Part shown: one piece after another, positions 15,823-47,880 of the stretch
How the letters are laid out: each line of letters begins with the position of its first letter
Numbering within the stretch: position 1 is the first letter of the stretch
Origin: Squalus acanthias
Taxonomy: Eukaryota
Direction: 5' to 3'
DNA length: 64,000 nt
Assembly (NCBI GenBank): GCA_030390025.1
Contig: JASTWF010000034.1
Location: 2,604,001-2,668,000, forward strand
The notes under the pieces: generated by a model
What the model saw: the letters and a program-made list of their open reading frames with translations, nothing else
Told to the model about the DNA's origin: nothing
The model's database searches: none
Translations under genes and position numbers: made by a program

Positions 15823-16003
15823 CAGGAACACCTACAGCAGCAAGCAGGGGATAGTAAATGTACTGAATAATCAGAAGTGCGTAATAGATCCGACTCTGTA
15901 ATGATAAACTATCATAATAGGCAGAAAGATAGTCAAACTGCCAGGAGAAACTCCTGCCCATTGTTGTAACATTCCAATCAACTGTTTTCAGATTCCAATC
16001 CAT
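15823..16003 (-). CDS. Exon 1 (N-terminus and TM1 start) of GPR139/GPR142-like orphan GPCR, paralog A; exon 2 predicted beyond the window start
   Basis: ATG at 16003 (second ATG at 15961). Encodes MDWNLKTVDWNVTTMGRSFSWQFDYLSAYYDSLSLQSRIYYALLIIQYIYYPLLAAVGVP and ends at the phase-1 donor G|GTAAGT. It is 181 nt, the same length as paralog B exon 1. Confidence 0.8.
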
Positions 16004-16119
16004 TGTTGCAGCATTCCAATCTACAGTACTCAGATTCCGACTCCCTCTCGGTGGAGCAGCGCGCTGATCCCTGTTAGTGCCGGAGGTGATGCTCTCACTG
16101 ACACTATGGGATAACACAT

Positions 16120-16285
16120 TGAAAGGAGTCCCTTATTAATAGAAGAGGGAAAGCCTGCACTGGCACAATTACAGTCCATGGAGACTGACATTATTTGCAG
16201 TCACTGAACAAACAGCTTCAGTTAACCCGTGGAGACTGGCATTAATTACAGTCACTGAAAAGACAGCTTCAGTTAACCCCTTTCA
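16120..16285 (-). promoter_or_regulatory. Putative proximal promoter of GPCR A: TATA-like TATTAATA plus a duplicated unit of about 50 bp
   Basis: TATTAATA lies about 130 bp upstream of the ATG. There are two copies of GGAGACTG.CATTA.TT.CAGTCACTGAA.A.ACAGCTTCAGTTAACCC, highly conserved with 48000-48160. Confidence 0.5.
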
Positions 16286-16324
16286 ATCCAGCACTTTTTG
16301 TACCACAGTAAAGTAGAATATTTA

Positions 16325-18155
16325 CCCGGTCTGGATGGGATGTATGAGGGTTGCGGAGTGAAGGAATGTTGGAAATAGCACAGGCTCTGGCCAGAATCTT
16401 TCAATCCTCCTTGGATATGGGAGTGGTGCCGGAGGACACTCTGTTTAGAAGAGGAGAGAGTGATAAACCCCGTAACTGCAGGCCAGTCAGCCTAATGTCG
16501 TCGGTGGGGAAAATTCTGGACGACATAATCCGGGACAAAATTATCTGTCATTTGGAAAAACATGGATGAATAAATGACAACCAGCACAGACAGTTTTAAA
16601 GTCAACGTCTGTCTGACAAACCTGATTAATTTTTTTTTGAGGAGGTATCATGGAGGGTAGATGAGGGTAGTGCGTTTGAAGTAGTATATATGGACTTTGG
16701 CAAGGCTTTTGATAAGGTTCCACATGGCAGAATGGTCACGAAGTTAAAAGCCCATGGGATCCAGGGCAAAGTGTCAAGGTGGATTCAAAACTGGCTCGGA
16801 GACATGAAGCAGAGGGTGATGGTTGATGGGTCTTTTTGTAACTGGAAGGCTGTTTCCAGTGGGGTTCCGCAGGGCTCAGTCCTAGTTCATTTGCTTTTTG
16901 TGGTATGTATCTACGATCTAGACTTGAATATAGGGGGTATGATTAAGAAGTTTGCAGATGATACTAAAATCGCCTGTGTGGTTTATATTGAAGAAGGAAG
17001 CTGTAGACTGAAGGAAGATATCAATAAATTGGTCAGGTGGGCAGAACAGTGGCAAATGGAATTCAATCCGGAGAAGTGTGAGGTAATGCATTTGGGGAGG
17101 GCTAACAAGTAAAGGGAATATGCATTAAATGGTAGGACACTGAGTAGTGTAGAGGAACAAAGGGACCTTGGAGTGCATGTCCTCAGATCCCTGAAGGTAG
17201 CAGTCCAGGTCGATAAGGTGGTTAAGAAGGCATACGGAATGATTGCCTGTATTAGCCGTGGCACAGAATACAAGAGCAGGGGGGTTATGCCTCAATTGTA
17301 TAAAAACACTAGTTAGGCCTCAGCTAGAGTACTGCGTGCAGTTCTGGTCACCACATTACAGGAAAGATTTGATTGCACGATAGAGGATACAGAGGAGATT
17401 TACAAGGATGTTGCCAGGAGCAGAGAATCTTAGCCATGAGGAAAGACTGGATAGGCTTGGTCTGTTTTCCTTGGAACAGAGGAGGCTGAGGGGAGACTTT
17501 ATTGAGGTGTATAAAATTATGAGGGGCTTAGAAAGACCCATTTTCCCTTAGCAGTGGGGTCAGATAGCAGGGGGCACAGATTTATAGTAATTGATAGAAG
17601 ATTTAGAGGGGATTTGAGGGGACATTTCTTCAGCCAGAAAGTTCACAGAATCCCCACAATGCAGATAGAGGCCATTTCGGCCCATCGAACCTGCACCGAC
17701 ACATATCCCACCCTATCCCCATAACCCCACGTATTTAATCCCCCTAACACTAAGGGTCAATTTATCATAGCCAAATCAACCTAACCCGCACATCTTTGGA
17801 CTGTGGGAGGAAACCCACGCAGACACGGGGAGAATATGCAAACTCCACACAGGCAGTCACCCGAGGCCGGATTCGAACCCGGGTCCCTGGTGCTGTGAGG
17901 TAACAATGCTAACCACTATGCCACCATGTTGCCTTTGTTGGGGTCTGGAACTCACTGCCTGAAAGGGTGGTAGAGTCAGGAACCTAACCACATTTAAAAA
18001 GTACTTGGATGTGCACTTAGGATGCTCTAACCTGCAGGGCTACGGAGCAAGAGCTGGGAAGTGGGGTTAGGCTGGATAGCTCTTTGTTGGCCGGCGCGGA
18101 CACGATGGGCCAAAATGGCCTCCTTCCGTGCTGTCACTTTCTATGATTCTATGAT
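16325..18155 (+). mobile_element. CR1 LINE RT and 3' end, interrupted by a V-SINE
   Basis: ORF 16690-17112 reads MDFGKAFDKVPH...SGVPQGSVL...KFADDTK, followed by a (CTATGATT)n tail. Confidence 0.92.
17643..17933 (-). mobile_element. V-SINE (HE1-like, elasmobranch)
   Basis: tRNA-like head GGTGGCATAGTGGTTAGCA...GGTTCGAATCC, V-domain GTGTGGAGTTTGCATATTCTCCCCGTGTCTGCGTGGGTTTCCTCC and a CR1-like tail. Confidence 0.88.
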
Positions 18156-19205: not shown

Positions 19206-19209
19206 GAAA

Positions 19210-21950
19210 TATCTGGAGTGTCCGAGAATCTGGAGGTGGGAGACGGAGAGCGTCGGACATCTCAGCAACCTGGCGACAGAATTACACATTATACAGCTAT
19301 ATGGCATACATCAGTCACTCATATGGTCAATGATGTTAGCAGCCAATGAATGGTCATCCTGTGCATAATGATATCTGTACCCATTCTTCATGGGACATAT
19401 CTAACTTATATCTTCACTCTCCCACAGGTTTATCAAGAGCTCCCCCCTGCACTGTCCAGGAGGAAGAGGAAGACGACTCCTCAGAGTAGCCTCCAGCCTC
19501 TGAGGGTGCACCGTCACCAGACATAAATGCACCCAGCACAAGGGCAGATACGCACATCTCGGTGGGTCCAACACGAGATAGAGTAGTGTTGTCACCTGGT
19601 GTCTCACAACTCACAAGTGTGCAAGTGCAGATGGTGGAGAGAGGGAGAGCAGTGGAGACCCCTCGCCGGAGGGTGCAGGACGCACTCAGCTCTGCTCAGC
19701 TCCATGCAGCCGCTGAGCCTCGGGGGCCATCCAGAAAGAGGGCGATCCTGGAGGTGCAGCAAGAAGTGCAGGGTGGCTCTGACAGGTTTTGCGAGCGCGA
19801 TGTCTGCAAATGTTCAGAGAATGGAGGAGTCCATCTTCAACATGGGCACCACCGTGTCGCAGGCGCTGGCGACTGTAGGGTCCTCCTTAGATAGGTTGGG
19901 CAGCTACATGGAGCAGCGAATGCGCCACTCGCCACATGGGTGTAAAAATTAGGTCGTCTGGACGCAAATATTAGCGCCTGGCGCTAATTATCGGCACTGA
20001 CTGGAAACTTCACTTTTACCGCCCCGGGAGGTGAGTGGAGCGCTAAATCAGGCGCTGCACACCTGTCTTAAGGCGCAAAGGCCAAGGAGTGAGGCGCTAA
20101 CTCAGAGCGCTGGCGAAGCTCATGTAATGTCATTCAGCAATGGAACACACACACAATGGCACGGGCCAGTTCTTAAAGGGGATGGTTAATCTTGCTTTCT
20201 ATCCACATCCTGTTCATTGCAGCCTTGAATCTCGGCCTGGAGAGATTGCACATCAATTGTGCTGGAAAGAACAATGGAGAGTACCAGGCAAAGAGCTCAG
20301 AGTGCAGCTCCCACAGTCTCTGCTAAATCGATACAAGGAATGGCAAATCAAAATGAACCTGCAAAGTGCTGCTCAGTACCCAAAACTCCTTCACACAACG
20401 TTGAATCTCTCCAGAAGTCTCTCCCTCTCTCTCTCAGAATGCGTAGTTCAAAAATGCCACCAACAATAAAAGACAGGAAGAGGCCCCCTTTAAATAGCGC
20501 CCCCCCCCCCCAGCCCCACAGCGATTGATAGCGTTCCAGTCTTCTGGTCGTTGGATGCGCCAGGCGGTAAGGCAGGGGGCGTCACTCAATTTCCGCTCCA
20601 GGGCGCCACAAGGGCGTTGCACCATGGAATGACGTCACAATCTGCGCGCCCAGGTGGTCGCAGCGGTAAGTTTTAGCGCCGCCGCACAATCTCAAGTTAA
20701 GTTCCCGAGCGGCGCAAACATCGCTGCGCCCGGGCGTTAGCGGCTTTGCGCCCCATTAGCGCCCTCTTAAGGCGCTAACGGGAGGCGCAACCAACTGAAT
20801 TTTTACCCCATGATCTTTATGGAGGGTAGGTGGCTATGTATAGAGAATAGATGGCAGAGGCTGATGGACCTCCTCTCTAGGAGGGATGTCAGCTTAGACG
20901 TGGGTCCTAATGTCCTCACTGCTGTGCAACAAGGTGCTCTCCACCTCCTTGGCAGCAGGGAAGTGAGCAGGCTGCCTCTACCTCTGCTGAAACCACAGGC
21001 GAGCACCTCGTAGAAGCAGGCGAAGAAGAAATATGGCACACAAGTATATTCACATGGGTAGCTATTTGAGTGTTTTATCGAATGTTTATGTAAGGTTTTT
21101 GTTAATGTGTTGTCAAACATAACAACTGCTATTTTCAAAACTTTCCGGTCCTGGACATATTTATGTACACATTTGCAAGTGGCTTAGGGAGTTGCAGTGA
21201 ATGCTGAGACATAACGATACCTCCAGCGATGGTGGTGAGTGTGAAAGTTATGCCTTGGTCATTGCAGGAGTGCTTTATGGTGTTGCTGTGGGGTGGAACC
21301 AACATGGAGCATCATGTTGCCGCCATATGGGTGAGCAGCATCAAGTGAAGTAAATCTGGCCATGGTGAGGCCATCCATGATCTCTCAGGCAGCAATGTGC
21401 TCGGCTGCTGATGCGCTCTGTTCTCTGCAGCATCAGGTGATTGCAGAGAAGGTTGGTGGTGATCTTGTTGCTGCTGCTGGTGTGACTGGTGCTGCTGGTG
21501 TGACTGGTGCTGCTGGTGTTGGGGCTCATAGTGTTCAGATTCTCAGGACCAAGGTGAAACAATATAAACGGCATCTATGCTGATGGAATAGATGGCAGGT
21601 GAAGTAGAGATGACAGAAGCAATCTGTCAATGGTGAGAGAGGTTATTTGATTAGTTGACGCTGGATGAAGACTTTGCTGGAAAGACTGCAGCCTGCAGAA
21701 TCTGTGCTGGGAATGCAGTGAGAAACAGTTTCTGCTGAGGAAAGTGATCATCTGTCAGGTGGGAGTTTTTATTGTTCATTTGATGCTGTCAAGTAATCAG
21801 CTGGTGCAATGGCCACTGAACTCCTGCCTCAGGTTGACAGGCGTGGATTCCGAGCAGCGTGTTCCCTATGGCCATCCAGTTAAATTAAATAAATTAGGTT
21901 AAAACCACTCTTAAATGTCTGAAAACAAGCTACTAGTAATGACAGCCCTA
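19210..21950. mobile_element. Probable decayed PIF/Harbinger-type DNA transposon (Myb/SANT-like ORF remnant on plus, Q/H-rich ORF end on minus)
   Basis: Acidic and coiled-coil peptide remnants (EEEEDDSSE; MSANVQRMEESIFNMGTTVSQAL) and a convergent Q/H-rich remnant. No catalytic motif is visible, so the assignment rests on resemblance. Confidence 0.4.
19939..20809 (+). mobile_element. Non-autonomous TIR element (Harbinger-like MITE), about 870 bp, 3-bp TSD ATG
   Basis: TIRs GGTGTAAAAATT...AATTTTTACCCC flanked by ATG/ATG; near-identical to 44929-45821. Confidence 0.85.
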
Positions 21951-26062: not shown

Positions 26063-26319
26063 TAAAAGTTCAATCGGGATTTCTTTTGTCAAGGAAACAT
26101 TTATAAGTGGTCTGGAAAGAATAGATAGAGAGAAACTGTTCCCATTGGCAGATGGGTCGAGAACCAGTGGACACAGATTTAAGTTGATTGGCAGAAGGTT
26201 CAGAGGCGACATGTGGAACAAGGTTTTTATGCTGCAAGTGGTTATGATCTGTTTAACATTTGTCAGTATTTTCTTTTCCTAGAGTTCCTATTATGAGTTT
26301 CAGACACTTCAGTGCCAAG

Positions 26320-30865: not shown

Positions 30866-30889
30866 GCAAGTTATTGTGTCCTCATCCAT

Positions 30890-32639: not shown

Positions 32640-34160
32640 AGTTTCTCACCATCTGCCTCTCTCTGTGTCACGCATTATATGTCTCGCTCAAGTCTGTCTC
32701 CATCCGTCTCTCTACCCATCGGTCTGTCTCCCAGCTGGCTCTGTCGTTCTCTCTCTATCTCCCACCTGAGGTCTGTATCTGTCCTCCCCCCGTCTGCTTC
32801 CATTAGTCTCTCAGCCATTGTCGTTCTACCCCCGGTCTGTGTCCCGCTCCTAGTCTCCCGTATGTCTCTCTTACACTGTCTCCCGTGTCTATCTGCCCTG
32901 TCTGTCTCCCACGATCTAACTCTCTCTTTGTCCCACCCCGTTTCCCCCCCCCCTCTCTCTCCTCTATCTGTCTATCTATCTCTGTCTCAAACCCGTCTGA
33001 TTTTTCTGTCTCCCGTCTGCCTCCTACCGTCTGTCTCCTCTATTTCTCTCTCTCTCTGGGTCACCCAGCATCTGTCTGCCCTGCCCCCAGGCGGTCTCCA
33101 TCTGTCTCCCTCCCCGTCGGTCTGTCTCTTCCCATTTTCTATCGCTCTCTCTATATTTCCCACCAGATGTGTCTCTCTCTGTCCCCCTGTTGGTCTCTCT
33201 CTCTCTATCTCCCACCGTATGTCTCTCTTTCTGCCCCCCTATTGATCTCTCTCTCTCTATTTCTCATCGTATGTCTCTCTCTCTGTCCCTCTGTTGATCT
33301 CTTACAATCTATCCCCCACCGTATGTCTCTCTATCTGCTCCCCTATTGATCTCTCTCTCTCTATCTCCCACCGTATGTCTCTCTCTCTCTCTGTCCCGTG
33401 CTGGTCTCTCTCTCTATCTCCCACCGTATGTCTCTCTCTCGGTCCCCTGTTGCTCTCTCTCTCTATCTCCCACCGTATGTCTCTCTCTCTCTGGCCCACT
33501 GATGGTCTCTCTCTCTCTATCTCCCACCGTATGTATCTACCTCTGTCCCTCTGTTGGTCTCTCTCGCTGTATCTCCCATTGTATGTCTCTCTCTCTGTCA
33601 CCCAGTTGGTCTCTCTCTCCATATCTCTCACCGGATGTCTCTCTCACTCTCTGTCCCCGTGTTGATTTCTCTCTCTGTCTCCCACCGAATGACTCTCTCT
33701 CTCTGTCTCTCTGTTGGTCTCTCTCTCTCTATCTCCCACCGTATGTCTCTCTTTCTGTTGGTCTCTCTATCTATCTCCCACCAGATGTCTCCCCAGTTCT
33801 GTATCCGCCGGTGTATCTCCCACGGTCTGTATCCCCCGGTCTTTCTCCTCCGGTCTGTCTCCCCCGATCTGTCTCTCTCTGTCTCCCCTGGTCTGTATCC
33901 CCCGGTCTCTCTCTTCTGGTCCGTCTCCCCAGGTCCGTCTCTCTCTCTCGCCCCCTCACTTGTCTGCCCGGACTCTGTCACGCCGTGTTCTCCCGCCCCT
34001 GCCCCACCACTTTCCTGAACATCTGTCTCCCCCGGTCTGTATCCCCCTCACCTGTCTGCCCCGACTGTGTCACGCTTTCCTTCTAGCCCCCTCCCCAAAC
34101 CCCATCACAGTCCTCACCGTCTGTCTCCCCAGATCTGTCTTCCCTGGTCCGTCTCTCTCC
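32640..34160. repeat. CT-rich low-complexity region with a 45-50 bp minisatellite (CTCTCTATCTCCCACCGTATGTCTCTCTCTCTGTCCC.TGTTGGT)
   Basis: CCCACCGTATGTCTCTCT recurs about 10 times in 33200-33760. Confidence 0.9.
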
Positions 34161-34600: not shown

Positions 34601-34637
34601 CCAGGGAGCTCTCAGGCTGCAAAGTCTCTGCTTCTTC

Positions 34638-35539
34638 TCATGATTTAATGAACTTTACAATCAGAGTAAAGGGATATTTCCCCACAATCTTCAACTGCTC
34701 TCTGAACTTAGTCTGGGTCACGGCATAAATCCCAGTGTTTGTGCAGCAACTCAGCAGCTGCAGCATGAATCCCAGTTCTTGTACATAAAAAGGTAGACAT
34801 ACAAGCTCAGACCCCAAATACGACAAGCGGTATGATATAGAATACACCGTAAACACTGCCCATAACAGGATGAAATTGCCCGAGATAACAAGCAGTAAAA
34901 TGATGGATTTCCTGCGGCTCTCCATCTCTGGATCCCTGGTACTCTCCCCACTACTGGGACCTCGGAGTCTCCTGCGGGCTCTGCTGGACACTGAAATGTG
35001 TCTGATGGTGACAGTATTGAGCAGCAGAATCACCACAAATGGGACCCCCGGGGTGAGAATATAATGAAGGAACTCGATTGCTACCCAGAACAGTGAGTAC
35101 ATTACATCGATTGTTACATCACAAAACCAGGGGAGGTTCTGAAGCCAATAGGAATCTGTCATCATGAAATACCAGGTGATATTCTTCAAACCGCTCACCA
35201 CAGTCACTGTTCCCAGAATCACAGCCGCCGTTTTCTCGGTGCAATGTTTAGTTTTCAGCTTCTGGCAACAAATGGCGACAAATCGATCAAAGGTGAAAGT
35301 GACGGTGAACCAGACAGAACAGTCTGTGGCTGAATAAAGCAGGACGGCGTGGATATTACACACGGGGATGGACCTCATGAAATCAAACTGTTCCATATAA
35401 AGAATCGGAATGTGCCTCAATATCAGATCGAGGATAATGACCAGTAGATCCGCCGCTGCCATGGCCACCAGGTAGCGAGTGATACATTTGGAGAGACCGC
35501 ACTTTCCCCGAGACAGGATCACAATCGTCACTAAGTTCA
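34638..35539 (-). CDS. Exon 2 of GPR139/GPR142-like orphan class A GPCR, paralog B (end of TM1 to C-terminus)
   Basis: Acceptor TTTATTTCCTTTCCTCGCAG| then an uninterrupted frame NLVTIVILSRGKCGLSKC..AMAAADLL..FTFDRFVAIC..TPGVPF..SGNFILLW..SCCTNTGIY, with TGA at 34638-34640. Splices in phase to the exon at 47700-47880. Confidence 0.93.
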
Positions 35540-36469
35540 CTGCGAGGAAAGGAAATAAACAGCAAAATTATACATCAGGCTGGGAGCAAAAGCAGTAGTT
35601 CGATGGAATCCGGGGAGAAATCTACAACTCATTAGCGACATTCAATAATCTAATTTAATTCTATTACCTGTGGAGCAGAATACAGGGTTTATTGTAAGAA
35701 AAGTTGATAATACATTGTGGAATCAATAAATGAAATGGGGATAAATCCAACATGAAAGTAACAGATGTTTGATCAATGAGAGATTAAGTGATCGATCTAT
35801 ATTTAGCCCAGCAGACAAAAGCACCGCCCGAGGTACCAGGGACACAAAGGACCAGACCTTTTTTGGAAGCCTTTGTGTCCCAGGATCAGTCAGCATTTGG
35901 AGCGATGCATTTCGCTTCTGTGCCCCAGTGTTGGGGGAGCGGGAAATAACGCTTTTATTCCTGCTCCTGGTTAGAATATCCATTATAGTTACAACTGAAA
36001 ATTAATGCAACAGCAAAGTACAGAAACTGCAACCTTGGCAAGCAATAATTGTATTGAAATCTGGCTTAAGGGAAATTTTGTGAGAATGTAAATTATCCTT
36101 GGAGTCCTTTTCTCACCATCAGAACCAGGGCCACCAATGCAGTACTGGAGATGGTGGGAAAGAAGACACTGACTGGAACTGAATTATTAGCGGATGTTTC
36201 ACCCGCCCATAAAATACACAGTACAGAACAGAGTTTCTCTTCCTATAAGGAACTAAAACTGAGATCAAAAGACAAGAATGTGACGGAAAAAAGGAAGGAA
36301 TTATGTAAGAAAAATGATGGATGGCCCCAAACTTGTTCTCAGATTTATTCCATCCAAGACTATTAGGGTAAAAATATTAACAACAAATAAATGGTCCTGA
36401 ACGGTAGCATCTGAGAGATGAACACAGTGATGAAACGATGTTACTCGCTTACATGGTAATGCGCCCGCC

Positions 36470-38375
36470 CCAATTAAATAATTTCATTCCCAGGGCCGCC
36501 GAATTACACTGCTCCCGCCACAGTCCAGGAATTTCATTCCTAGGGCTGCCTAGATTACACTGCTCCCGCCTCAGTGCAGGAATTTCATTCCCAGGACAGC
36601 CTAGATTACACTGCTCCCGCCTCGTCCAGGAATTTCATTCCCAGGGTGCCTAGATTACATTGCTCCCGCCTCAGTCCATGAATTTCATTCCCAGGGCCAC
36701 CTAGATTACACTTCTCCCACCTGAATCCAGGAATTTCATTCCCAGGGCCACCTAAATTAAACTGCTCCCACCTCAATCCAGGAATTTCATTCCCAGGGCC
36801 ACCTAGATTACACTGCTCCCGCCTCAGTCCATGAATTTCATTCCGAGTGCCACCTAGATTACACTGCTCCAGCCTCAGTCCAGGAATTCCATTCCCAGGG
36901 CCACCTCGATTACACTGCTCCCACCTCAATTCGGGAATTTCTTTCCCAAGACTGCCGAGATTACACTGCTTCCGCCTCAGTCCAGGAATTTAATTTCCAG
37001 TGCCGCCTAGATTGCACTGCTCCCTCCAATGTCCTGGAATTTCATTCCCAGGACCATCTAGTTTAGACTGCTCCCGTCTCAGTCGAGGAATTTCATGCCA
37101 AGGCCAACCTAGATTGCACTGAATCCGCCTCAATACAGGATTTTCATTCCCAGGGCGGACTAGATTACACTGCTCCCGCCTCATTCCTGGAATGTCATTC
37201 CCAGGACCATCTAGTTTACACTGCTCCCGTGCCAGTCGAGGAATTTCATGCCAAGGCCAACCTAGATTACACTGCTTCCACATCAGTCCAGGAATTTAAT
37301 TCCCAGAGCCACCTAGATTAAACTGCTCCCACCTCAATCCAGGAATTTCATTCCCAGTGCCACCTAGATTACACTGCTCCCACCTCAATCCAGGAATTTA
37401 ATTCCCAGTGCCACCTAGATTACACTGCTCCCAACTCAGTTCATGAATTTCATTCGAGGGCCACCTTGATTAAACTGCTCCAGCCTCAGTCGAGGAATTC
37501 CATTCCCAGGGCCACCTAGGTTACACTGCTCCCACCTCAATTCGGTAATTTCATTGCCAAGACTGCCGAGATTACACTGCTCCCTCCTCAGTCCTGGAAT
37601 TTCATTCCCAGGACCATCTAGTTTACACTGCTCCCGTCTCAGTCGAGGAATTGCATGCCAAGGTCAACCTAGATTACACTGCTTCCGCCTCAGTCCAGGA
37701 ATTTCATTCCCAGGGCCACCTAGATTACACTGCTCCCGCCTCAGTCCTGGAATTTCATTCCCAGGGCCGCCTAGATTACACTGCTCCCGCCTCAGTCCTG
37801 GAATTTCATTCCCAGGGCTGCCTAGATTACACTGCTCCCGCCTCTATCCAGGAATTTCATTCCCAGGACCGCCTAGATTACACTGCTCCCGCCTCATTCG
37901 TGGAATTTCATTCCCAGTTCCGCCTAGATTACACTGCTCCCGCCTCAGTCCTGGAATTTCATTCCCAGGGCCACCTAGATTAAACTGCTCCCGCCTCAGT
38001 CCTGGAATTTCATTCTCAGGGCCACCGAGATTAAACTGCTCCCACCTAATTCCAGGAATTTCATTCCCAGTGATGCCCATGTTACTCTGCTCCAGCCTAA
38101 ATCCAGCAATTTCATTTCCGAGGAGCCTAGATTAACTGCTCCAGCCTCAGTCACGGAATTGCTTTGCCAGGGCTGCATTGAGTACACTGCTCCCGTCTCT
38201 GTACAGGAATTCAGTTCCCAGGGATGCCTTGATTACACTGCTCCCACCTCAGTCCAGGAATTTAATTCCCAGGGCTGCCTAGAGTACACTGCTCCCGCCT
38301 TAGTCCAGGAATGTTATTCCCATTGATGCCTATATTACTCTGCTCTCGCCTTAGTCCAAGAATTCAATTCCCAGT
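36470..38375. repeat. Intronic minisatellite, 51-bp unit (GGAATTTCATTCCCAGGGCCACCTAGATTACACTGCTCCCGCCTCAGTCCA), about 37 copies
   Basis: Direct 51-bp periodicity; the 17-aa repeat ORFs in the track reflect it. Confidence 0.97.
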
Positions 38376-38599
38376 TAATTTCTCTATTGCCTAAATCTAG
38401 AACAAGAACAAGAAAAAGTTTCGAAAGAGTGACCTTACCCAGACAAACATATCATGGTGTTTGACAGAGGGGAAGTATAATTAAAAGGAGCAAATGGCAA
38501 TACCAAGGAATCAAAGGCAAACGTTTAAACTTTAAACCAATGAGATAAATAGCCTGTAACCTCCTCAATACTCCATGAAACACTCTGGAAACATTGAAT

Positions 38600-39210
38600 T
38601 CTCGCTTAGTCATTCTCACAAAATCATAACTACCAGTCAATTTCCCGAATCCTCCATCACCATCCCAGGCTGTGTCCTGTTCCACTGGCAGCACAGACCC
38701 AGAGGTGGGAGCACAGTGTTATACAGTCACGTGGGCGAGATCCTGCAATTCCTTAACATTGCCAAAGAATATAATGAAGTCTCATGGCTACCAGTCAGAC
38801 ATGGGCAAAGTAATTATCGCCCACCCTCAGCTGATGAATCAGCACATGCTGAACACCATTTGATGGGAGCACCGAGAGCAGAAAGGGTGCAAAATATACT
38901 CTGGGTGTGGAGGGGGATATTTCAATGTCCATCAACAATAGTGGCTCGGAAGTACCAGCATTAACCGAGCCCTGAAGAATGCAGCTGCCAGACTGGGATT
39001 GTGGCAGGTGGTGGGAGAACCAATAGGAGAGAATAGCCTGCTTGACCCCGTCCTCACTAACCTACCTATCGCATATACATCTCTTCATGATGATATTGGT
39101 AGAACTGACCAGTGCACAACATTTGTGGAGAATCAGTCTCGCCTTCACCCTGAGGCCACCCTCCATCATATCATGTGCCACTACCATGGTGATCAATGGA
39201 ACGAAATTAG
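38600..39210 (+). mobile_element. LINE endonuclease-domain fragment
   Basis: ESSITIPGCVL..RPRGGSTVLY, YRPPSADES and QVVGEP..NSLLDPVLTNL..IGRTD, which are APE-like motifs. Confidence 0.75.
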
Positions 39211-39349
39211 AGAGCGCCAAGCGATCCCACAACCAACAGATCAAATTATTTCAAAGTTGTCATATCCTGTCGTGAATGGTAATGAACGATTGAGCCGTTT
39301 CCACATGGCACAGAAAATTTCTACTTTTCAAGTATATGGAAGTTACAGC

Positions 39350-40370
39350 TAAGAAAGAAAGAATTGCATTGATATAGCGCCTTTCACGATCTTGGGATGT
39401 GCCAATGCGCTTTACAATCAATGAAGAAATTTTGAAGTCTAGTCACTGTTGTACTGTACGAAACGTGGCAGCCAATTTGCGCACAGCAAGCTCCCACAAA
39501 CAGCAATGTGATCGTTGCCAGATAATCTGCTTTAGAGATGTTGATTGAGATAAATATTGGCCACAACACCGGGGTTAACTCTGCTGCTCTTCTTCGATAT
39601 ACATCCATGTGATTTTTTAGTCCACTTTAGAGAACAGACGGGGCCTCGGTTTAACGTCTCATCTGAAAGACGGCCCGCCCGACACTGCAGCGCTCCCTCA
39701 GTACCGCCCCTCCGACAGTGCAGCGCTACCTCAGTACTGACCCTCTGACAGTGCAGCGCTCCCTCAGTACTAACCCTCTGACAGTTCAGCGCTCCCTCAG
39801 TACTGACTCTCTGACAGTGCAGCGCTCCCTCAGTACTGACCGTATGACAGTGCAGCGCTCCGTCAGTACTGACCCTCTGACAGTACAGCGCGCCCTCAGT
39901 ACTGCCCCTCTGATAGTGCAGCGCTCCCTCAGTACTGCCCCTCTGACAGTGCAGCGATCCCTCACGACTGCCCCTCTGACAGTGCAACGCTCACTCAGTA
40001 CTTACCCTCTGACAGTACAGCGCTCCCTCAGTACTTCCCCACAGACAGTGCAACGCTCCCTCAGTACTGACCCTCTGTCAGTGCAGCGCTCCCTCAATAC
40101 TGCCCCTCTGACAGTGCAGCACTCCCTCAGTACTGCCCCTCTGACAGTGCAGCACTCCCTCAGTACTGCCCCACTGTCAGTGCAACGCTCCCTCAGTACT
40201 GACCCTCTGACAGTGCAGAACTCCCTCAGTACTGCCCTTCCCACACTGCAGTGATCCTTCAGTACTGCACTGCAGTGTTAGCCTAAATTTTTGTAATCAA
40301 GTCGGTGGAGTGGGCCTTGAACCCACGACATTTTGACTCAGAGCCGAGAGTGCTACTACCTGAGCCTACT
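39350..40370 (-). mobile_element. DeuSINE (same family as 18597-19058) with an internal minisatellite expansion
   Basis: 39350-39680 and 40265-40370 align with 18597-18925 and 18955-19058. Confidence 0.85.
39680..40270. repeat. 33-bp minisatellite (ACAGTGCAGCGCTCCCTCAGTACTGACCCTCTG), about 17 copies
   Basis: Direct 33-bp periodicity inside the SINE. Confidence 0.96.
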
Positions 40371-41159
40371 GAATCTGCTTCCACCAGACTTTCCGAATTC
40401 ATTGCAGGTCATAAAAACTCACTGCGTGACCAAAGTTCTTCTCATCTGCTCCCTGCTTCTTTTACCAATTATCTTATATATGTGCCATTTAGGTAATGAC
40501 AAGGCAAGTTCTGGAAACAGTTTCTCCTTTCTTACTGTTTCAAAATCCCTTTTCTTTCTGAACACTTCTATTCAATCTCCCCCAACCTTCTGTGTTATAA
40601 GGAGAACAATTCCAGCTTCTCTCGTCTGCCCACATAACTGAAATTCCTCAGCCCTGGTGTAATTACGGTAAATTCTCACCACACAAGTGGCAGAGGATGA
40701 CCACCCCCAACAAAAGGGAGTCTAACCTCTTCCACCTGACAGTCAACGGCAATTCCATCACCGAATCCTCCACCACAAAATCCTAGGGTCTCCATTGATC
40801 AGAAACTCAACTTGACCAGCCTCATAAATGCCGTGGCTACTAAAGCAGGTCAGAGGCTGGGTATTCTGCAGTGAGTAACTCACCTCCTGACTCCACAAAT
40901 CATCTCCAACAAGGCACAAGTCAAGAGTGTTCTGGATTACTGTCTGTAGACTGTGGTATGACTTGTGGGCAAGACCCTACCAATTCTATTAATTGTATTA
41001 AAAGATTTTCAATATTAAGGACACGTACACATATTACAACCAAATGTCTGCAAAATAATCAGGTTCTAAGCTGTCATATTCAGGACAAGATTAGAATCTG
41101 TAAATGAACATTTGTGACACCGCCCGAAAGAATATTCTAGGCCCTTTTGTTTGCAGCGT

Positions 41160-41320
41160 TTTGTCTCTTTAAAAATCCTGTGTGACTGGTCCTGTCTCTT
41201 TAAAAATCCTGTGTGACTGGTCCTGTCTCTTTAAAAAGCCTGTGTGACTGTTCCATTCTCTTTAATAAACCTGTGTGACTGGTCCTGCCTCTTTAAAAAG
41301 CCTGTATGAATGTTTCTGGG
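41160..41320. repeat. Five-copy array of the same 31-bp monomer as 1-9250
   Basis: TGTCTCTTTAAAAA.CCTGTGTGACTGGTCC five times, followed by the same unique flank as 9290-9780. Confidence 0.95.
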
Positions 41321-41794
41321 TCACTGACTGTGGCTCTGCCCTCTTGTTCAGCTGTTCATTGCATGCTATGAAGAAGAGACAGAATGGAGTTGTTTTTAAA
41401 CAGGGGACCATGGATTTTGGATCCACAGGGGTGTTGACGGTGCAGGATTACTGAAACTAGTTCTTTGACACTGAAGTGGCTTCACTGAGTTACGGAGAAA
41501 CCTTTGCTGGAAAAGTAGTGTTAAGGATTGAAGACCTAGGCCTAGAAATCCGTCATTGACTGCAGTGGAGCTGAATATCAGGCGCTGCGTGTAACTGGCG
41601 CCCGATCCGATACCGCCCGGTTAACGCCACCACCCGAGACACATTTCTCGGCCGTTGTCTGCAGACATTCGCAGATATCAAATGTCACAGCGTGCTGACG
41701 AATTGCACTATGACTTTGCCTCTCAAAGATTCGGCTTGAACCCATTCAGAGCCATTTGTTATCTTCCGAGACAGATTGCTCCAGGGGTGGGGGT

Positions 41795-42275
41795 AGAACA
41801 TAGAACATAGAACAGTACAGCACAGTACAGGCCCTTCGGTAGTCGATGTTGTGCCGAGCATTGTCCGAAACCAGGATCAAGCTATCCCACTCCCTATCAT
41901 TCTGGTGTGCTCCATGTGCTTATCCAATAACCGCTTGAAAGTTCCTAATGTGTCCGACTCCACTATCACAGCAGGCAGTCCATTTCACACCCCAACCACT
42001 CTCTGAGTAAAGAATCTACCTCGGACATCCCTTCTATATATCCCCCCATGCACCTTATAGTTATGCCCCCTTGTAACAGCTGCCTCTACCCGAGGAAATA
42101 GTCTCTGAACATCCACTCTATCTATCCCCCTCATCACCTTATAAACCTCTATTAAGTCGCCTCTCATCCTCCTCCGCTCTAAAGAGAAAAGCCCCAACTC
42201 CCTCAATCTTTCCTCATAAGACCTCCCCCCCAAAACCAGGCAGCATCCTGGTAAATCTCCTTTGCACTCTATCTA
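41795..42275 (-). mobile_element. Young 5'-truncated CR1 3' end
   Basis: Near-identical to 60700-61170; (TTCTATG)n tail; absent from copy A near 9775. Confidence 0.9.
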
Positions 42276-42599
42276 AAATTCACTAAAAGCATTTCAGTCT
42301 CATCCAAAACACGGCTGTCCGTGTCCTAACTCGCACCAAGCACCGTTCACCCATCACTCCTGTGCTCGCTGACCTACATTGGCTCCAAGTCCGGCAAAGC
42401 CTCGATTTTAAAATTCTCAACCTCATGCAGTGTTCTGGCAGCACCTTCACCACACAGACTGCAGCGATCAAGATGAAGGCGCACCATTTTCACATGGTTA
42501 ACTAGGGATGGGCAATTAGTACCAGCCTTGACAGTGTCACCAATATCCTGTGAACAAATGGATATAAATAATAAAATAGGAATACAATCAATGATTTTC

Positions 42600-43490
42600 A
42601 AATTCACTGATTGAAACCAGGCGAGGCCTGTGATCAGAATCATGTTACGCTACACAAATTGTCTCATAACTTGGCTCAGAAATTCTATGATTCTTTGATT
42701 GCTATTGCCCATACTTTCCCAATGTCCCTCTCATTTAAAAAGGTGCTTGATAAAGTCCCACATAATACGTAAATTGAAGCCCATGGGATTAAAGTGGCAG
42801 TGGCAACATGGCTCGGAAATTGGCTGAGAGACAGAAAGCAGAGAGTAGTGGTGAACGGGTGTTTTTCAGACTCAGTCGACACTGGTGTTCCCCAGGGGTC
42901 GGTGTTAAGAGCTTTGCTCCTTTCATGTATATCAATGCCATTTACGTGGGTATAAAGCACATAATTTCAAACTCGGAAATGTTCATAAACAGTGAGAAGG
43001 AAAGTAACAGACTTCAGGAGAACATAGACAGACTGGTGAAATGGGCAGACGCATTCAGATACAATTTAACACAGATAAGGGTGAGGAGATTCATGTTGTT
43101 AGGAAGCAAGAGCAGAGGCAATATAAACTAAACGGTACGATTTTAAAGCGGGTGCATGATCAGAGAGACCTGGGGCGTACTTACATAAATCTTTGAGGGT
43201 GGCAGGACAAGTTGCGATGGCTGTTAAAAAAGCATACGGAGTCCTTGGCTTTACAAACAGAAACACAGAGTAACAAAATCCAGAAAAAAATGCTATCCTT
43301 TTATAAATAATTGGCTAGGCCCCATCTGGAGTATGGTGTCCAATTCTGAGCACCACATTTTGGCAAGCATGACAAGGATTAGGGAAGGTGTAGAGGAGAT
43401 TGACCAGATTGGAACCAGGGATCTGGGACTTCAGTTACGTGGAGAGACTGGATAATCTGGGATTGTTCTTTTTAGAGCAGCGAAGGTTAA
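42600..43490 (+). mobile_element. CR1 RT fragment (paralog of 10840-11740)
   Basis: Colinear homology with the copy A fragment; GVPQGSVL remnant. Confidence 0.85.
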
Positions 43491-43494
43491 GAAT

Positions 43495-46400
43495 CGTAGA
43501 ATTATAGAATCTTAGAAATTTACGACACAGAAGGAGGACATTCGGCCCATCGTGTCTACGCCGGTCGAAAAAGAGCAATCCAGCCTAATCCCACTTTCCA
43601 GCACTTGGTCCGTAGCCCTGTAGGATACAGCATTTCAAGTGTATAGCCAAGTACGTTTTAAATGTAATGAGTGTTTCTGCCTCTACCACCCTTTCAGGCA
43701 GTCAGTACCAGACACCCACCGCCCTCTCGGTGAAAACAATTCTCCTCGTCTGAACTCTGATCCTTCTACCAATTACTTTAAATCTATGACCCTGGTTATT
43801 GATTTTTCTGCTTAGCGAAATAGATGCTTCCTATCCACTCTATCTAGGCTCCTCATAATTTTATACACCTGAATTTAATCTCCCTCAGCCTCATCTGTTC
43901 TAAAGTAAACAACCCCAGCCTATCCAATCTTTCCTCCTAGCTAAAATTCTCCAGCGCAGACAACATCCTCGTCAATCTCCACTGAAACACCTCTAGTGCA
44001 ATGACATATTTCCTGTAATGTGGTGACCAGAACTGTACACAGTACTCTAGCTGTGGCCTAACTAGTGTTTAATACAGTTCAAGTATAACCTCCCTGCTCT
44101 TATGTTCTATGCCTAGGCTAATAAAGCAAATTATGCCATATGTCTTCTTAACTACCCTATTTACATGTCCTCTACTTACAGGGATCTGCAGACATGCACT
44201 CCAAAGTCTCTCTGTTCCTCTACAATTCTCAGTATCCTACAATTTATTGTGTATTCCCTTTTGTTTTTTGCCCTCCTCAAATGCATCACCTCACACTTCA
44301 CTGGATTGAATTCCATTGCCACATTTCTGCCCAGCTGACCAGATCATTGATATCTTCCTGCAGTTTACAGCTTTCTTACTCATTATCAACTACATGGCCA
44401 ATTTATGTATCATCAGCAAACTTCTTAAGCATGGCCTCAACATTGAAGTCTAAATCATTGAAATATACCACAAAAAGCAGGAGACCAAGTACTGAGCCCT
44501 GTGGAACCCAAATGGAAACAGCCTTCCAGTCACAGAAACAGCAGCCGACCATTACCATTTGCTTCCTGCCACTGAGACAATTTTGGATCCAACTTGCCAC
44601 TTACCCTTGGATCCCATGGGCTTTTACTTTTTGACCAACCTGTCATGTTGGACCTTGTCAAAGGCCTTGCTAGTATCTATGCGGACTATCTCAAATACAG
44701 TACCCTCATCGATCCTCCTCAAAAAATTCAATCAAGTTAGTCAGACATGATCTTCCCTTTATAAATCCACGCTGACTGTCCTTGATTAATCCGTGCCTTT
44801 CTAAATGCCGATTTATAATCTCCCTCAGAACGTTTCTAATACTTTTTCCACCAACGACGTTAGGCTGACTGGCTTGTAATTGTTTGGTCGAACCCTTTCT
44901 CCCTTTTTAAACAGCGATAAAACTTTAGGGGGTAGAAATTAGGTCGCGCCACATTTGGGGCGCAAATATCGTCCGGACGCAAATATTAGCGCCTGGCGCT
45001 AATTATAGGCACTGACGGGAAACTTCACTTTTACCGCCCCGGGAGGTGAGTGGAGCGCTAAAGCAGGCGCTGCACACCTCTCTTAAGGCGCAAAGGCCGA
45101 GCAGTGAGGCGCTAACTCGGAGCGCTGGCGAAGCTCATGTAATGTCAGTCAGCAATGGAATACACACACAATGGCACGGGCCAGTTCTTAAAGGGGATGG
45201 TTAATCTTGCTTTCCATCCACATCCTGTTCATTGCTGCCTTGAATCTCGGCCTGGAGAGACTTGCACATCAAATGTGCTGGAAAGAACAATGGAGAGCAC
45301 CAGGCAAAGAGCTCAGAGTGCAGCTCCCACGGTCTCTGCTAAATCGATACAAGGAATGGCAAATCAAAATGAACCCGCAAAGTGCTGCTCAGTACCCAAA
45401 ACTCCTTCACACAAAGTTGAATCTCTCCAGAAGTCTCTCCCTCTCTCTCTCAGAATGCGTAGTTCAAAAATGCCACCAACAATAAAAGACAGGAAGAGGC
45501 CCCCTTTAAATAGCACCCCCCCCAGCCCCACAGCGATTGATAGCGTTCCAGTCTTCTGGTCGTTGGAAGCGCCAGGCGGTAAGGCAGGGGGCGCCACTCA
45601 ATTTCCGCTACGGGGCGCCCCAAGGGCGTTGCACCATGGAATGACGTCACAATCTGCGCGCGCAGGTGGTCGCAGCGGTAAGTTTTAGCGCCGCCGCACA
45701 ATCTCAAGTTAAGTTCTCGAGCGGCGCAAACATCGCTGCGCCCGGGCGTTAGCGTCTTTGCGCCCCATTAGCGCCCTCTTAAGGCGCTAACGGGTGGCGC
45801 AACCAAGTGAATTTTTACCCCTAGGAGTCCTCTGGCACTACACCAGTAGCCAGACACGGTCGAAACATGATGATCTGAGCCTCCGCTATTTCCTCCCTCA
45901 GCTCTCTTAACAGCCTGGGATACATTTCATCCGGGCCTCATGATTTATCTACTTTCAAATATGCTAAACCCCTTAATATTTCCTCTCTCGCTATGTTTAT
46001 CTCATCTAATATTTCACACTCCTCCTTAACTACAATGTCTGCATTGACCCTCTCTCCTGTGAAGACAGATGCAAAGTATTCGTTAAGATCCTTACAAACG
46101 TCTTCTGCCTTCACACTCTGGTTACCTTTTTGGTCTCTAATAGGCCCTACTGTTTCCTTAGTTATCCTCTTGCGATTTATGCATTTATAAAACCTCTTTG
46201 GGTTTTCCTTGATTTTACTTGTCAATATTTTTTCGTGCCCTCTCTTTGCCTTCCTAATTTACTTTTTAACTTCAGTCCTGCACTTTCTACACCCCGCTCG
46301 GCTTTCTGTAGTACTGAGTTCTCGGTATCTATCAAAAGCTTCCCATTTATTCCTCATACTACCCTGTATGTTCCTTGACATCCAGTGGAATCTATAATTG

Positions 46401-46605
46401 GAGGTCACATACTATTTCTTTGTGCAACATATTTGCTCTGAACCCTCATTATCTCCTCCTTGAATGCTCCCCACGGCTCTGACACTGATCTCCGTTCAAC
46501 TAGCTGTTTTCAGTCCATTTTTGCTAAATCTCATCTCAGCTGAATATAATTAGCCTTTCCGCAATTGAGAACTTTTACACCTGGTCTATCTTTGTCCTTT
46601 TCCAT
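43495..46605 (-). mobile_element. CR1 LINE (paralog of 11745-14545), interrupted by a MITE
   Basis: WIQNCLSGRKQ..VPQGSVLG..KKFADDT and KENPKRFYK..LNEYFASVFT. Confidence 0.9.
44929..45821 (+). mobile_element. Non-autonomous TIR element (Harbinger-like MITE), 893 bp, 3-bp TSD TAG
   Basis: GGGGTAGAAATT...AATTTTTACCCC flanked by TAG/TAG; the copy A site near 13750 is empty. Confidence 0.88.
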
Positions 46606-46985
46606 AAGGAGAGATTTAATATAGATGTTCAAAATTATGATGGGTTTTGATAGAGTAAGTAAGTCGAAACTGTTTCCAGTGTCAGAATGTTGGTTAACCA
46701 GAGGGCACAGATTTAACGTAATTGGCAAAAGAACCAGAGGAGAGATGAGGAGAATTTGTTCTACGCAGTGAGTTGCTGTGTTCTTGAATGCACTGACTGA
46801 GAACGCGGTGGAAACAGATTTAATAGTAACTTTTTAAAGGGAATTGGATAATTAGTTGAAGGGGAATTTTTTACAGGGCTCTGGCTAAAAAGTCGGACTA
46901 ATTAGATAGCTCTTTCAAAGAGACGGCACGGACACGATGGGCCGAATGGTCTCTGTCTGTGCTGTACTGTTCCATGATTCTATCA
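46605..46985 (+). mobile_element. CR1 3' end (paralog of 14545-14895)
   Basis: Colinear homology; GGGCCGAATGGTCTC..CTGTGCTGTA and a CATGATTCTAT tail. Confidence 0.8.
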
Positions 46986-47699
46986 GCAGGAGACAGAGAG
47001 AGAGTGAAGAGGGACAGAGAGAGAAAGTGAGAAAGAGAGAAATACAAATAGAGACAGAAAGACTGGGAGAGAATACAGAGGGAAAAAATAACTTTAAAAG
47101 GGGAATTGGATAAGTACTTGAAGGAGAAAATTTGCAGCACTATGCGAAAAGAGCAGGGTAATAGGAATAATGGGAGGGGTGAGGTCATGGTAGGATTTGA
47201 ACACAAGGAGTAGAATATTAAGATTAAGGCGTTGCCGGATTGGGAGCAAATGTCGGTCAGCCAGCACAGGGGTGATGGTTGAACAGGACATGATGCGGGT
47301 TAGGATAAGGGCAGCAGAATTTTAGATGAGCTCTAGTTTATGGAGGCATTGGAATAGTCGAGTCTGGATTTAACAAAAGCACGGATGAGGGTTTATGCAG
47401 CGGAAGGGCTGAGGCGGGGCGGAGACGGGCGATATTGCAGAGGTGCTGGTAGGCAGGACTGGTGAATCCGAGAATTACAGATCTATTTTCTGGATATAAC
47501 AGTGACACCCACAGCAGCAAAGAGGGGAGAGTAAATCACCAGAACATTAATACAGTTAGCAAAGGTTTGCAGAGTTAATAGATGGATACAATGACTTACC
47601 AGGAACAACAACAAAAAGAAGGAGGGGAGAGTAAAAGACAAGAACAGTAAAGCAGTTAAACGTAGTCTATAGGATTAATAGCCGGATAGAGCGACTTAC

Positions 47700-47880
47700 C
47701 AAGAACACCGACAGCAGCGAGGAGGGGATAGTAAAAGTGTTGAATAATCACAAGGGCCCAAAAGATCCGCGTGTCTAATGGTAGCCAATCATAATATGCT
47801 GAAAGTTTGTCAAACTCCCAGATGAAACTCCTGCCCATTGTTGTAACATTCCAATCTACTGTTCTCAGATTCCGATCCAT
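47700..47880 (-). CDS. Exon 1 of GPR139/GPR142-like orphan GPCR, paralog B
   Basis: ATG at 47880 (second ATG at 47838). Encodes MDRNLRTVDWNVTTMGRSFIWEFDKLSAYYDWLPLDTRIFWALVIIQHFYYPLLAAVGVL with phase-1 donor G|GTAAGT. Joined to 35539 it reads ...YYPLLAAVGVL-V-NLVTIVIL, and 181+902 nt gives 360 aa. Confidence 0.85.

Follow-up and report, generated by a model that had tools for sequence, protein, structure and literature searches.

The 64,000-nucleotide stretch of Squalus acanthias DNA analysed here (hereafter the window) holds an intact receptor gene and the first exon of a paralogue. This raises the question whether the two are copies of GPR139, the name that databases attach to such genes, or members of a distinct receptor family of cartilaginous fishes, and what such a family might detect.

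An intact two-exon gene and a duplicated first exon

Splicing the minus-strand exons of the complete gene (copy B) in silico yields a 360-residue class A GPCR with no internal stop. Exon 1 (47700..47880, minus strand; 181 nt, i.e., 60 codons plus 1 nt) encodes the ATG, an N-terminal glycosylation unit, an extracellular helix and the first half of TM1; the helix and the N-terminal disorder were taken from the predicted structure of the closest full-length homologue (pLDDT 86). A phase 1 GT..AG intron of 12,160 nt follows (35540..47699, minus strand), containing tandem repeats of 31, 33 and 51 bp and LINE fragments. Exon 2 (34638..35539, minus strand; 902 nt) encodes the remainder of TM1 through helix 8 and the stop codon, and its predicted structure has a pLDDT of 91. 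Exon 1 is matched by 84 of the 120 best homologues, and all 84 run collinearly into exon 2 without offset, which supports the splice across 47700/35539 as a predicted gene model. In DNA run X14, 27 contigs depart from their match at the copy B acceptor, where a pyrimidine-rich tract is present. Contigs cross the acceptor in runs X1 and X5, which, like X10, we guess to be RNA; since all three also cover intron bases, they are uninformative on transcription and splicing, and the loose end seen there in 2 contigs of X1 cannot be read as an exon 1.

Pfam places the protein in 7tm_1 (73.6 bits against a cut-off of 30.5; E 2.3e-20), and Foldseek gives TM-scores of 0.61-0.75 against class A receptors. 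By sequence and by predicted fold it is a class A (rhodopsin-like) GPCR with seven helices, and the preliminary description of an intact two-exon receptor of this class is borne out by the open frame, the intron borders and the Pfam match. No other model among 24,736 in Pfam reached E<=1, including the OR, TAAR, V1R, T2R, V2R and T1R profiles, and none of these six classes is among the 4 solved-structure matches by sequence.

The paralogous first exon (copy A; 15823..16003, minus strand) retains a start codon (ATG), an open reading frame and the splice donor GTAAGT. It lies 31,877 bp from that of copy B in the same orientation, as originally noted, and shares 151/181 nucleotides and 45/60 residues with it (dN 0.167, dS 0.26, dN/dS about 0.64 over 60 codons). 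Self-BLAST aligns the surrounding blocks (copy A, 9137..17515; copy B, 41162..49396) at 74-86% identity with an offset of 31.2-32.5 kb, pointing to an old tandem event. The segmental duplication proposed earlier is therefore real, with the limit that it takes in exon 1 with its promoter and reaches through the 5' half of the intron, leaving exon 2 outside. A 31-bp minisatellite of 300 copies (1..9295) lies within the copy A intron; at the matching copy B site (41162-41309) there are 4.8 copies of the unit. Because the copy A intron enters this minisatellite, which reaches position 1, its exon 2 is beyond view and would sit past the left edge of the window. A family profile run over all six frames of the window finds three pieces only and no further copies, so that the proposed tandem array amounts here to two tandem copies, one a whole gene and the other an exon 1.

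Upstream of exon 1, a conserved region (copy B, 47881..48210, minus strand) is a putative promoter and 5' UTR; its copy A counterpart (16004..16333, minus strand) is assigned by comparison. The two are identical at 302/327 positions, versus 2950/3486 in the intron blocks (p 2e-5), and a search for an RNA element in the region gave no Rfam match. In the copy B region a 51-bp unit is doubled and TAATTA occurs three times, the latter a weak sign because this site is common throughout the window (23 observed versus 13 expected). Neither copy shows a 26-bp satellite immediately before the putative promoter. A doubled 42-bp (14-codon) unit straddles the copy B start codon (47848..47912, minus strand; copy A, 15958-16038) and is a coding repeat of variable number in relatives. 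We considered the N-terminal repeat as a tethered ligand and found this unsupported; the model has residues 1-14 disordered.

We also considered copy B as a pseudogene. This was rejected on the open two-exon frame and the retention of conserved columns: of the 111 columns with at least 95% conservation across 117 close relatives, copy B deviates at 2 (median of other members, 2). Copy B thus appears to be a working family member.

Relation to GPR139 and to two conserved orphan receptors

GPR139 is the nearest characterised relative, and a feature search returns clusters named for GPR139 or as FMRFamide-receptor-like, so the window protein can be placed in the broad GPR139/GPR142 group. Human GPR139 (PDB 7vug, 9m42) heads the sequence matches to solved structures (E 5.5e-11, 45.5 bits), the only other receptor matched being, weakly, the PAF receptor, and none of the 50 Foldseek rows exceeds it in identity (22%, TM-score 0.69). 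Both proteins come from two exons (for GPR139, according to PMC7318219), lack a proline at 7.50 and retain W6.48. By fold alone, other peptide receptors score equally well, the leading rows being level at Z 24-25, and GPR139 is absent among the 50 matches listed by VIA-align.

Nevertheless, the window gene, though its family is automatically named 'probable GPR139', is by sequence not a GPR139 orthologue. It scores 105-113 bits to two orphan clades, A and B, versus 45.5 to GPR139, and the GPR139 pocket residues E3.32, F3.33, H5.43, W6.48, R6.51 and N7.39 correspond to L, Y, Y, W, F and F in the window protein (numbering mapped by us from a printed alignment). GPR139 itself is described as 70% identical between human and zebrafish, and, unlike GPR139, the family has dozens of copies per genome. 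Replaced pocket residues and 22% identity agree with the original view of a receptor distinct from GPR139 itself. True GPR139 and GPR142 sequences were not among the listed homology hits, and the trees were built without them. Rows labelled 'GPR142' (one or two) share 52-53% identity with the clade B protein of coelacanth and were rejected as true GPR142; the single such row included in a tree groups inside clade B.

The nearest bony-vertebrate relatives are the two conserved orphan genes, mostly with one hit per species. Clade A, an amphibian, sturgeon and reedfish receptor (e.g., Pleurodeles XP_069092602.1), is 28-32% identical to the window core and shares an ICL3 D-x-E motif and W6.48 with the chondrichthyan family. 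It is found as a single hit in each of 20 amphibian species and in a sturgeon, has an invariant pocket with F3.33, K6.51 and N7.39 and, unlike the window protein, keeps the TM6 proline. Clade B (coelacanth XP_005988539.1, teleosts, amphibians, reptiles; 24-31% identity) resembles the window protein in having F at 3.51 and no TM6 proline, but differs in its conserved pocket with R6.51. It is possibly the GPR210 of Rinne et al. 2019 (PMC6504862), where three sets near GPR139/142 are named in gar, fishes and coelacanth. Sharks retain a short-branched clade B orthologue (Scyliorhinus, Stegostoma, Pristiophorus), 32% identical to the window protein. Clade A is sister to the chondrichthyan family in one tree (SH-aLRT 80) and groups with clade B instead in a second (84/69). 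The chondrichthyan family forms one clade with SH-aLRT 94 in 73 rows but 67/55 in 28 rows; a 23-row core including the window and chimaera genes has support of 82/94.

The altered motifs reported earlier are all present: DRF, NTGIY in place of NPxxY, and Val rather than Pro at 6.50. Reading them as decay or a special mode of activation was rejected for the first two, which are traits of the wider group: DRF is carried by 117/118 close and 47/59 diverse family members, and the NPxxY proline is absent from human GPR139 as well. Only the loss of the TM6 proline arose inside the family. Family members have C3.25 in TM3 and a cysteine in ECL2, whereas the GPR139 alignment has no TM3 cysteine.

A large chondrichthyan family with genus-specific copies

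At E<=0.001 the family comprises 2,515 of 5,017 candidates (clusters at 90% identity), and at E<=1e-30 it comprises 119 clusters at 50% identity. Among 30 representatives looked up, 21 are from sharks or rays, 1 from a chimaera and 4 from bony vertebrates; many of 150 representatives are short or partial. Counting only the best 120 hits, exon 2 cores distinct at 90% identity number 51/60 in Heterodontus (horn shark), hence at least 51 copies, 19/38 in Heptranchias and 15/18 in Pristiophorus. Catshark members include XP_038636253.1-256.1 and XP_038654761.1. On the subfamily tree the genus labels require 3 changes, compared with 46.7 on average after shuffling, as expected of the lineage-expanded birth-and-death family that had been suggested. 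Its range is wider than the elasmobranch system first envisaged: sharks and rays have it, and so does the chimaera Callorhinchus milii. On these comparisons the family is large, old and chondrichthyan, and mislabelled GPR139 in databases. We found the expansion nowhere described in the literature searched, although tandem-cluster labels in bioRxiv 10.1101/2025.06.08.657570 may name it.

A variable pocket above a conserved intracellular face

Mean entropies for pocket, loops and intracellular face are 2.74, 2.57 and 1.29 in 59 diverse members and 0.76, 1.77 and 0.50 in 118 close members. In 18 amphibian orthologues, whose overall identity is similar (78% vs 74%), they are 0.05, 0.53 and 0.65, and in 28 orthologues of the second orphan 0.68, 1.70 and 1.14. 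Across the family the pocket is variable and the intracellular face conserved, and the orthologous controls show the reverse, which strengthens the resemblance to a receptor repertoire noted in the preliminary description. Variable sites agree across three genera (Spearman 0.68-0.70), and Heptranchias pairs that differ by ~5% elsewhere differ by 42% at 20 sites chosen in Heterodontus (70 pairs). The exon-1-calibrated comparison has few, non-independent pairs, and Pristiophorus is weak (0.30-0.33 versus 0.23, 2 pairs); the excess of change at ligand-facing positions is one at the protein level. For paralogue DNA of exon 2, 349 pattern matches in metagenome contigs were obtained, none of them confirmed. 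Against an adaptive reading, the one ratio measured, on exon 1, is dN/dS about 0.64, and in the second orphan, a single-copy gene, loop entropy likewise exceeds that of the intracellular face (1.70 vs 1.14); loop variation may reflect relaxed rather than positive selection. Within subfamilies a polar pocket is fixed, consisting of D2.57, R2.61, H3.28, D3.37, E5.39, H5.42, E7.36 and Q7.42 in that of the window.

Lineage-specific expansion is common to the vertebrate OR, TAAR, V1R, V2R, T1R and T2R classes, and the present family, which belongs to none of the six, combines it with a variable extracellular pocket. Lophotrochozoan class A expansions are likewise lineage-specific with high entropy at the extracellular helix ends, a property used in PMC11886862 to nominate chemoreceptors.

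What the family may detect

A functional, diversified receptor repertoire is, in our judgement, very probable. Whether it works as an old GPCR family of chemosensory detectors is close to an even question, leaning slightly against; only about half of the weight we give to a functional repertoire falls on a chemosensory epithelium. This preferred reading builds on the observed gene structure, family size and spread, genus-specific expansion and variation pattern. Within the GPR139/GPR142 group, whose relatives are peptide and aromatic amino-acid receptors according to PMC8557429, an orphan receptor would have been the starting point of the expansion in cartilaginous fishes, with tandem duplication of promoter plus gene supplying new copies. 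The receptors would respond to a range of external molecules, probably amino-acid derivatives or short peptides, in chemosensory epithelium of the nose, mouth or skin. The fixed polar pocket of each subfamily may hold one shared chemical group, while the rim (extracellular loops 1-3, the tops of TM6 and TM7 and the added N-terminal helix), which varies within a subfamily, would discriminate related ligands; the conserved intracellular face could serve a single G-protein pathway. As described in PMC10869828, cartilaginous fishes have many olfactory neurons and only 20-62 known olfactory receptor genes. Against this, PMC10116579 describes catshark olfactory neurons as all Go/TRPC2 microvillous and expressing V2Rs, which may already account for catshark smell, and larger elasmobranch genomes are reported to hold more tandem duplicates generally (bioRxiv 10.1101/2025.06.08.657570).

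The same sequence pattern would also be predicted by immune or somatosensory use, on leukocytes, mast-like cells or sensory neurons responding to microbial, parasite or damage peptides. In mammals, formyl-peptide receptors and MRGPRs read peptides of these kinds. An arms race would account for the turnover by genus and for a rim that is hypervariable around a conserved deep pocket, and the window subfamily has a glycosylated N-terminal stalk of variable length. Moreover, PMC8455134 gives MAS1 and related receptors as absent from cartilaginous fishes, so that an MRGPR-like role would be vacant. The sequence matches to solved structures, however, show no kinship to MRGPRs or formyl-peptide receptors, and we consider this account serious but less likely than the chemosensory one.

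Much less probable is internal peptide or metabolite signalling (neuroendocrine, gut or reproductive) in the manner of GPR139 and GPR142, the paralogues being partitioned by tissue or following a variable family of peptide ligands, e.g., pheromones. Descent from a peptide-receptor group and a fold nearest to peptide receptors favour it, but a fixed ligand goes with a constant pocket, which is seen in the amphibian orthologues and not in this family, and the GPR139 binding residues are replaced. Least probable of all is passive expansion of a duplication-prone cassette under weak constraint, with most copies redundant or silent: although repeat-rich surroundings, the exon 1 dN/dS ratio, the numerous partial relatives and the tracking of genome size by tandem duplicates in two batoids (bioRxiv 10.1101/2025.06.08.657570) would suit it, the near-invariant columns kept by copy B, the subfamily-specific polar pockets, retention in sharks, rays and a chimaera, and a putative promoter better conserved than the intron all speak against it.

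The most far-reaching form of the chemosensory reading, which we hold tentatively and below the reading as a whole, is that the family is an unrecognised chemoreceptor class beside the six known. Cartilaginous fishes would then have in it their principal class A repertoire for smell or taste, with each sensory neuron expressing one or a few of the genes; the receptors would recognise peptides by means of their subfamily-specific pockets and in some sharks would outnumber all known olfactory receptors together.

Cartilaginous fishes are described as GPCR-poor in PMC8455134, and yet a single subfamily accounts for the horn shark copies counted above, concealed under an automatic name. For ligand finding, the conserved orphan receptors of amphibians and fishes (clades A and B) are ready controls. 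Use of the genes in leukocytes or skin neurons would give sharks a counterpart of their own to MRGPRs and formyl-peptide receptors; use in sensory neurons would mean that the present account of shark smell and taste misses a major family.

Copy B is a real gene with a duplicated first exon

Copy B, a two-exon GPCR gene on the minus strand, belongs to a large, apparently undescribed chondrichthyan GPCR family with a repertoire signature that is backed by single-copy controls. Its exon 1 (47880-47700) forms an open frame with exon 2 (35539-34638, also open) across a phase 1, GT..AG intron of 12,160 nt, yielding a product of 360 amino acids (the window protein). Copy A, a paralogous exon 1 in the same orientation (16003-15823, minus strand), is open, has an ATG and a donor, and lies 31,877 bp from its counterpart, with which it shares 151/181 nucleotides and 45/60 amino acids. 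The preliminary description had placed all three exons and the open 360-residue frame correctly, and the segmental duplication it saw around both first exons is borne out by blocks at approximately 9.1-17.5 kb and 41.2-49.4 kb (74-86% identity), each holding one exon 1 together with the region upstream of it and the intron's 5' half. Its tandem array survives as duplicated first exons, but a family profile run against six frames of the window found only three pieces, namely exons 1 and 2 of copy B and exon 1 of copy A. Exon 1 is matched by 84 (copy B) and 85 (copy A) of the best 120 homologues, which are database gene models and not reads, and all of these join exon 2 without offset. In addition, 27 contigs of the DNA sequencing run X14 diverge at the exon 2 acceptor into a pyrimidine-rich tract. 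Collinearity and contigs together indirectly support the predicted splice. Copy B is a real gene, and its duplication with copy A is real.

Over the approximately 330 nt before the ATG, identity between copies A and B is 92%, compared to 85% in the intron (p 2e-5), consistent with a putative shared promoter; gene conversion would give the same pattern. Exon 1 also brings a glycosylation unit of 14 residues, the copy number of which ranges from 0 to 4 or more among relatives. The 42-bp unit at the start codon (47848-47912 in copy B, 15958-16038 in copy A) is a coding repeat that varies in number between shark relatives, and one Met and one N-glycosylation site come with every unit; 0, 1, 2, 3 and 4 core copies occur in 63, 30, 10, 9 and 5 of 117 shark relatives (P0013, P0022 and P0029 exemplify the variation). 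An extracellular helix in exon 1 is confidently modelled at residues 12-28 of the closest full-length homologue. The N-terminus is short in most inspected members of other subfamilies and in clades A and B, two conserved orphan GPCR genes of non-mammalian vertebrates.

Repeats and mobile elements

A 31-bp minisatellite in the copy A intron (1-9295) has 300 copies and continues past the left window edge, beyond which an exon 2 of copy A would lie; the matching site in copy B (41162-41309) has 4.8, so that the array has grown more than 60-fold since the duplication. At the intron start of both copies (15556-15844 in copy A, 47505-47737 in copy B), the end of exon 1 and its donor are repeated approximately 3 times in decayed form with a 99-bp period, providing possible alternative donors. 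The copy B intron carries further tandem repeats at 36480-38374 (51-bp, 37 copies) and 39681-40268 (33-bp, 18 copies). A pyrimidine-rich 26/52-bp satellite (33145-33955), the sole 26-bp array in the window, lies 0.7-1.5 kb past the copy B stop and adjoins a GC-rich stretch; it does not precede a promoter, and neither copy has a 26-bp satellite on its upstream side. Broken LTR-retroelement remnants occupy approximately 52000-55350 on the minus strand in several frames; RNase H models match two pieces, the remaining ones having no Pfam family. LINE-type reverse transcriptase fragments (Pfam RVT_1) are found at 61117-62541, 63053-63817 and 16630-17112. Two repeat pairs (19954-20809 with 44969-45821, and 41799-42276 with 60702-61176) are each 96% identical, indicating recent insertions.

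A large chondrichthyan receptor family

Pfam 7tm_1 is the sole Pfam match of copy B's exon 2, whose predicted fold is that of class A receptors (pLDDT 91). After clustering at 90% identity, 2,515 of 5,017 candidates are relatives at E<=0.001, a count pooling many species without a split by taxon; at 50% identity clustering, 119 clusters persist with E<=1e-30. The best 120 of the 2,515 come from Heterodontus (60), Heptranchias (41), Pristiophorus (18) and Carcharodon (1), and 119 carry the name 'probable G-protein coupled receptor 139'. The taxa of 30 among 150 listed representatives comprise 21 sharks or rays, 1 chimaera (Callorhinchus milii), 4 bony vertebrates and 4 unnamed. The proposed elasmobranch receptor expansion thus fits the many shark and ray relatives but is drawn too narrowly, given the chimaera member.

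Within the best 120, exon-2 cores distinct at 90% identity number 51/60 in Heterodontus, 19/38 in Heptranchias (after removal of 3 rows that carry internal duplications) and 15/18 in Pristiophorus; since cores alone were compared, alternative N-termini are not counted, and the numbers are minima for a single subfamily. In the same set, one 142.7-Mb contig carries 14 Heptranchias clusters and one 90.1-Mb contig nine Heterodontus clusters, which fits gene clustering without implying tandem order. The database models of P0005, P0006, P0008, P0049, P0133 and P0136 are faulty, with internal duplications or LINE-derived N-termini.

Relationship to GPR139 and two orphan receptors

Human GPR139 is the best solved-structure match by sequence to the window protein, yet a weak one (45.5 bits, 22% identity). 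As human and zebrafish GPR139 are reported to be 70% identical (PMC7318219), the window protein is not GPR139. Clades A and B outscore it, at 105-113 bits. Clade A has one representative in each of 20 amphibian species and in sturgeon, and is also present in reedfish; clade B is found in coelacanth, teleosts, amphibians and reptiles, and its short-branched shark orthologue is 32% identical to the window protein. Both (P0252, P0295-P0314 and P0421; P0246 and P0326-P0440) are likewise automatically named GPR139, with no mammal or bird among the named matches; the pocket of one does not vary among amphibians, and the other includes models named after TMEM183A or fused with it. They may be the GPR210 sets described in PMC6504862.

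In an 86-row tree the family forms a single clade (SH-aLRT 94) with clade A as its sister (80). In a 48-row tree, with a bootstrap not fully settled and a long outgroup branch, the family clade reaches only 67/55 and clades A and B are joined (84/69). Both trees contain no GPR139 or GPR142 sequence, and their root placement differs. An ICL3 D-x-E motif is common to the family and clade A and occurs in 0/28 clade B rows, which favours clade A as the nearest relative.

Of the altered motifs previously remarked upon, DRF and the proline-less 7.50 are common to the wider group: DRF occurs in 117/118 close members (the copy B subfamily) and 47/59 diverse members, F3.51 in 28/28 clade B rows, and the 7.50 proline is missing in human GPR139 and clades A and B too. 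The missing TM6 proline does stand out. It is present in GPR139, 18/18 amphibian clade A orthologues and 8/59 diverse members, and its loss therefore happened inside the family and, independently, in clade B. At the positions of the GPR139 binding residues E3.32, H5.43, R6.51 and N7.39 reported in PMC7318219, the window protein has L, Y, F and F (generic numbers assigned by hand from alignment anchors), while clade A retains K6.51 and N7.39. The window protein departs from only 2/111 near-invariant subfamily columns, the median of other members, and so looks functional.

Pocket variation and selection

Mean column entropies for the pocket (27 positions), extracellular loops and intracellular half are 2.74/2.57/1.29 in diverse members and 0.76/1.77/0.50 in close members (74% mean identity), versus 0.05/0.53/0.65 in the 18 amphibian orthologues (78% mean identity) and 0.68/1.70/1.14 in 28 clade B orthologues, both single-copy controls. 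These profiles indicate that the pocket was rebuilt between subfamilies, that copy B's own subfamily combines a fixed polar pocket with a variable rim, and that the G-protein face is conserved throughout. Of the polar pocket positions, D3.37 alone is retained family-wide (117/118 close, 46/59 diverse); neither control has it, and it is a candidate contact that would anchor a peptide terminus or an amine.

The pattern of site variability agrees between three genera (Spearman 0.68-0.70). Across 70 Heptranchias pairs that are approximately 5% different elsewhere, the sites picked from Heterodontus show 42% difference; 13 Heterodontus pairs, 25% different in exon 1, show 72-75% difference at sites chosen in other genera, and 2 comparable Pristiophorus pairs only 30-33%. 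Together with an exon 1 dN/dS of approximately 0.64 (copy A versus copy B), this hints at positive selection, the pairs not being independent. Genus labels change 3 times on the subfamily tree, versus 46.7 when shuffled, so copies multiply, or are homogenised, within lineages.

Possible function and novelty

Peptides with aromatic C-termini were probably the ligands of the ancestral GPR139/GPR142-group receptor (PMC8557429). Taken with the variable-pocket pattern, this leads us to read the family as a putative receptor repertoire for varied peptide-like ligands, in which a polar pocket fixed per subfamily and a varying rim would be coupled to a conserved G-protein face. From sequence, we tentatively place its action at a chemosensory site, with a chance just short of even. 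Catshark olfactory neurons, reported as all Go/TRPC2-positive with V2R expression (PMC10116579), count against this; a catshark brain-plus-olfactory library, whose 50 top genes are reported to include no GPCR of any family (PMC11979771), does not discriminate. An immune or somatosensory role is less likely, though it is the strongest competitor, and a role in internal or reproductive signalling is distinctly improbable. Passive expansion, the weakest alternative by a little, would match reports that larger elasmobranch genomes have more tandem duplicates (bioRxiv 10.1101/2025.06.08.657570); this and the loops, which vary in a single-copy control too, count against a repertoire, for which the pocket profiles speak.

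The family proteins are annotated in RefSeq under an automatic name and are apparently undescribed. Literature on GPR139 or receptor 139 and sharks, covered by title and abstract start with subscription journals beyond reach, held no account of them. Nor are they mentioned in the main texts (figures and some supplements lying outside this scope) of PMC10620051, PMC11979771, PMC8455134, PMC11406177, PMC7677710, PMC10751288, PMC12208981 and the Squalomix preprint, which may label them in its tandem-cluster figure. In the accessible supplements of PMC8455134, the one match is a GPR142 orthogroup of 70 proteins from 35 taxa. Expanded class A repertoires as such are already reported (PMC11886862; PMC10869828); what appears new here is a vertebrate class A repertoire derived from the GPR139 group, the inferred function of which is directly testable.
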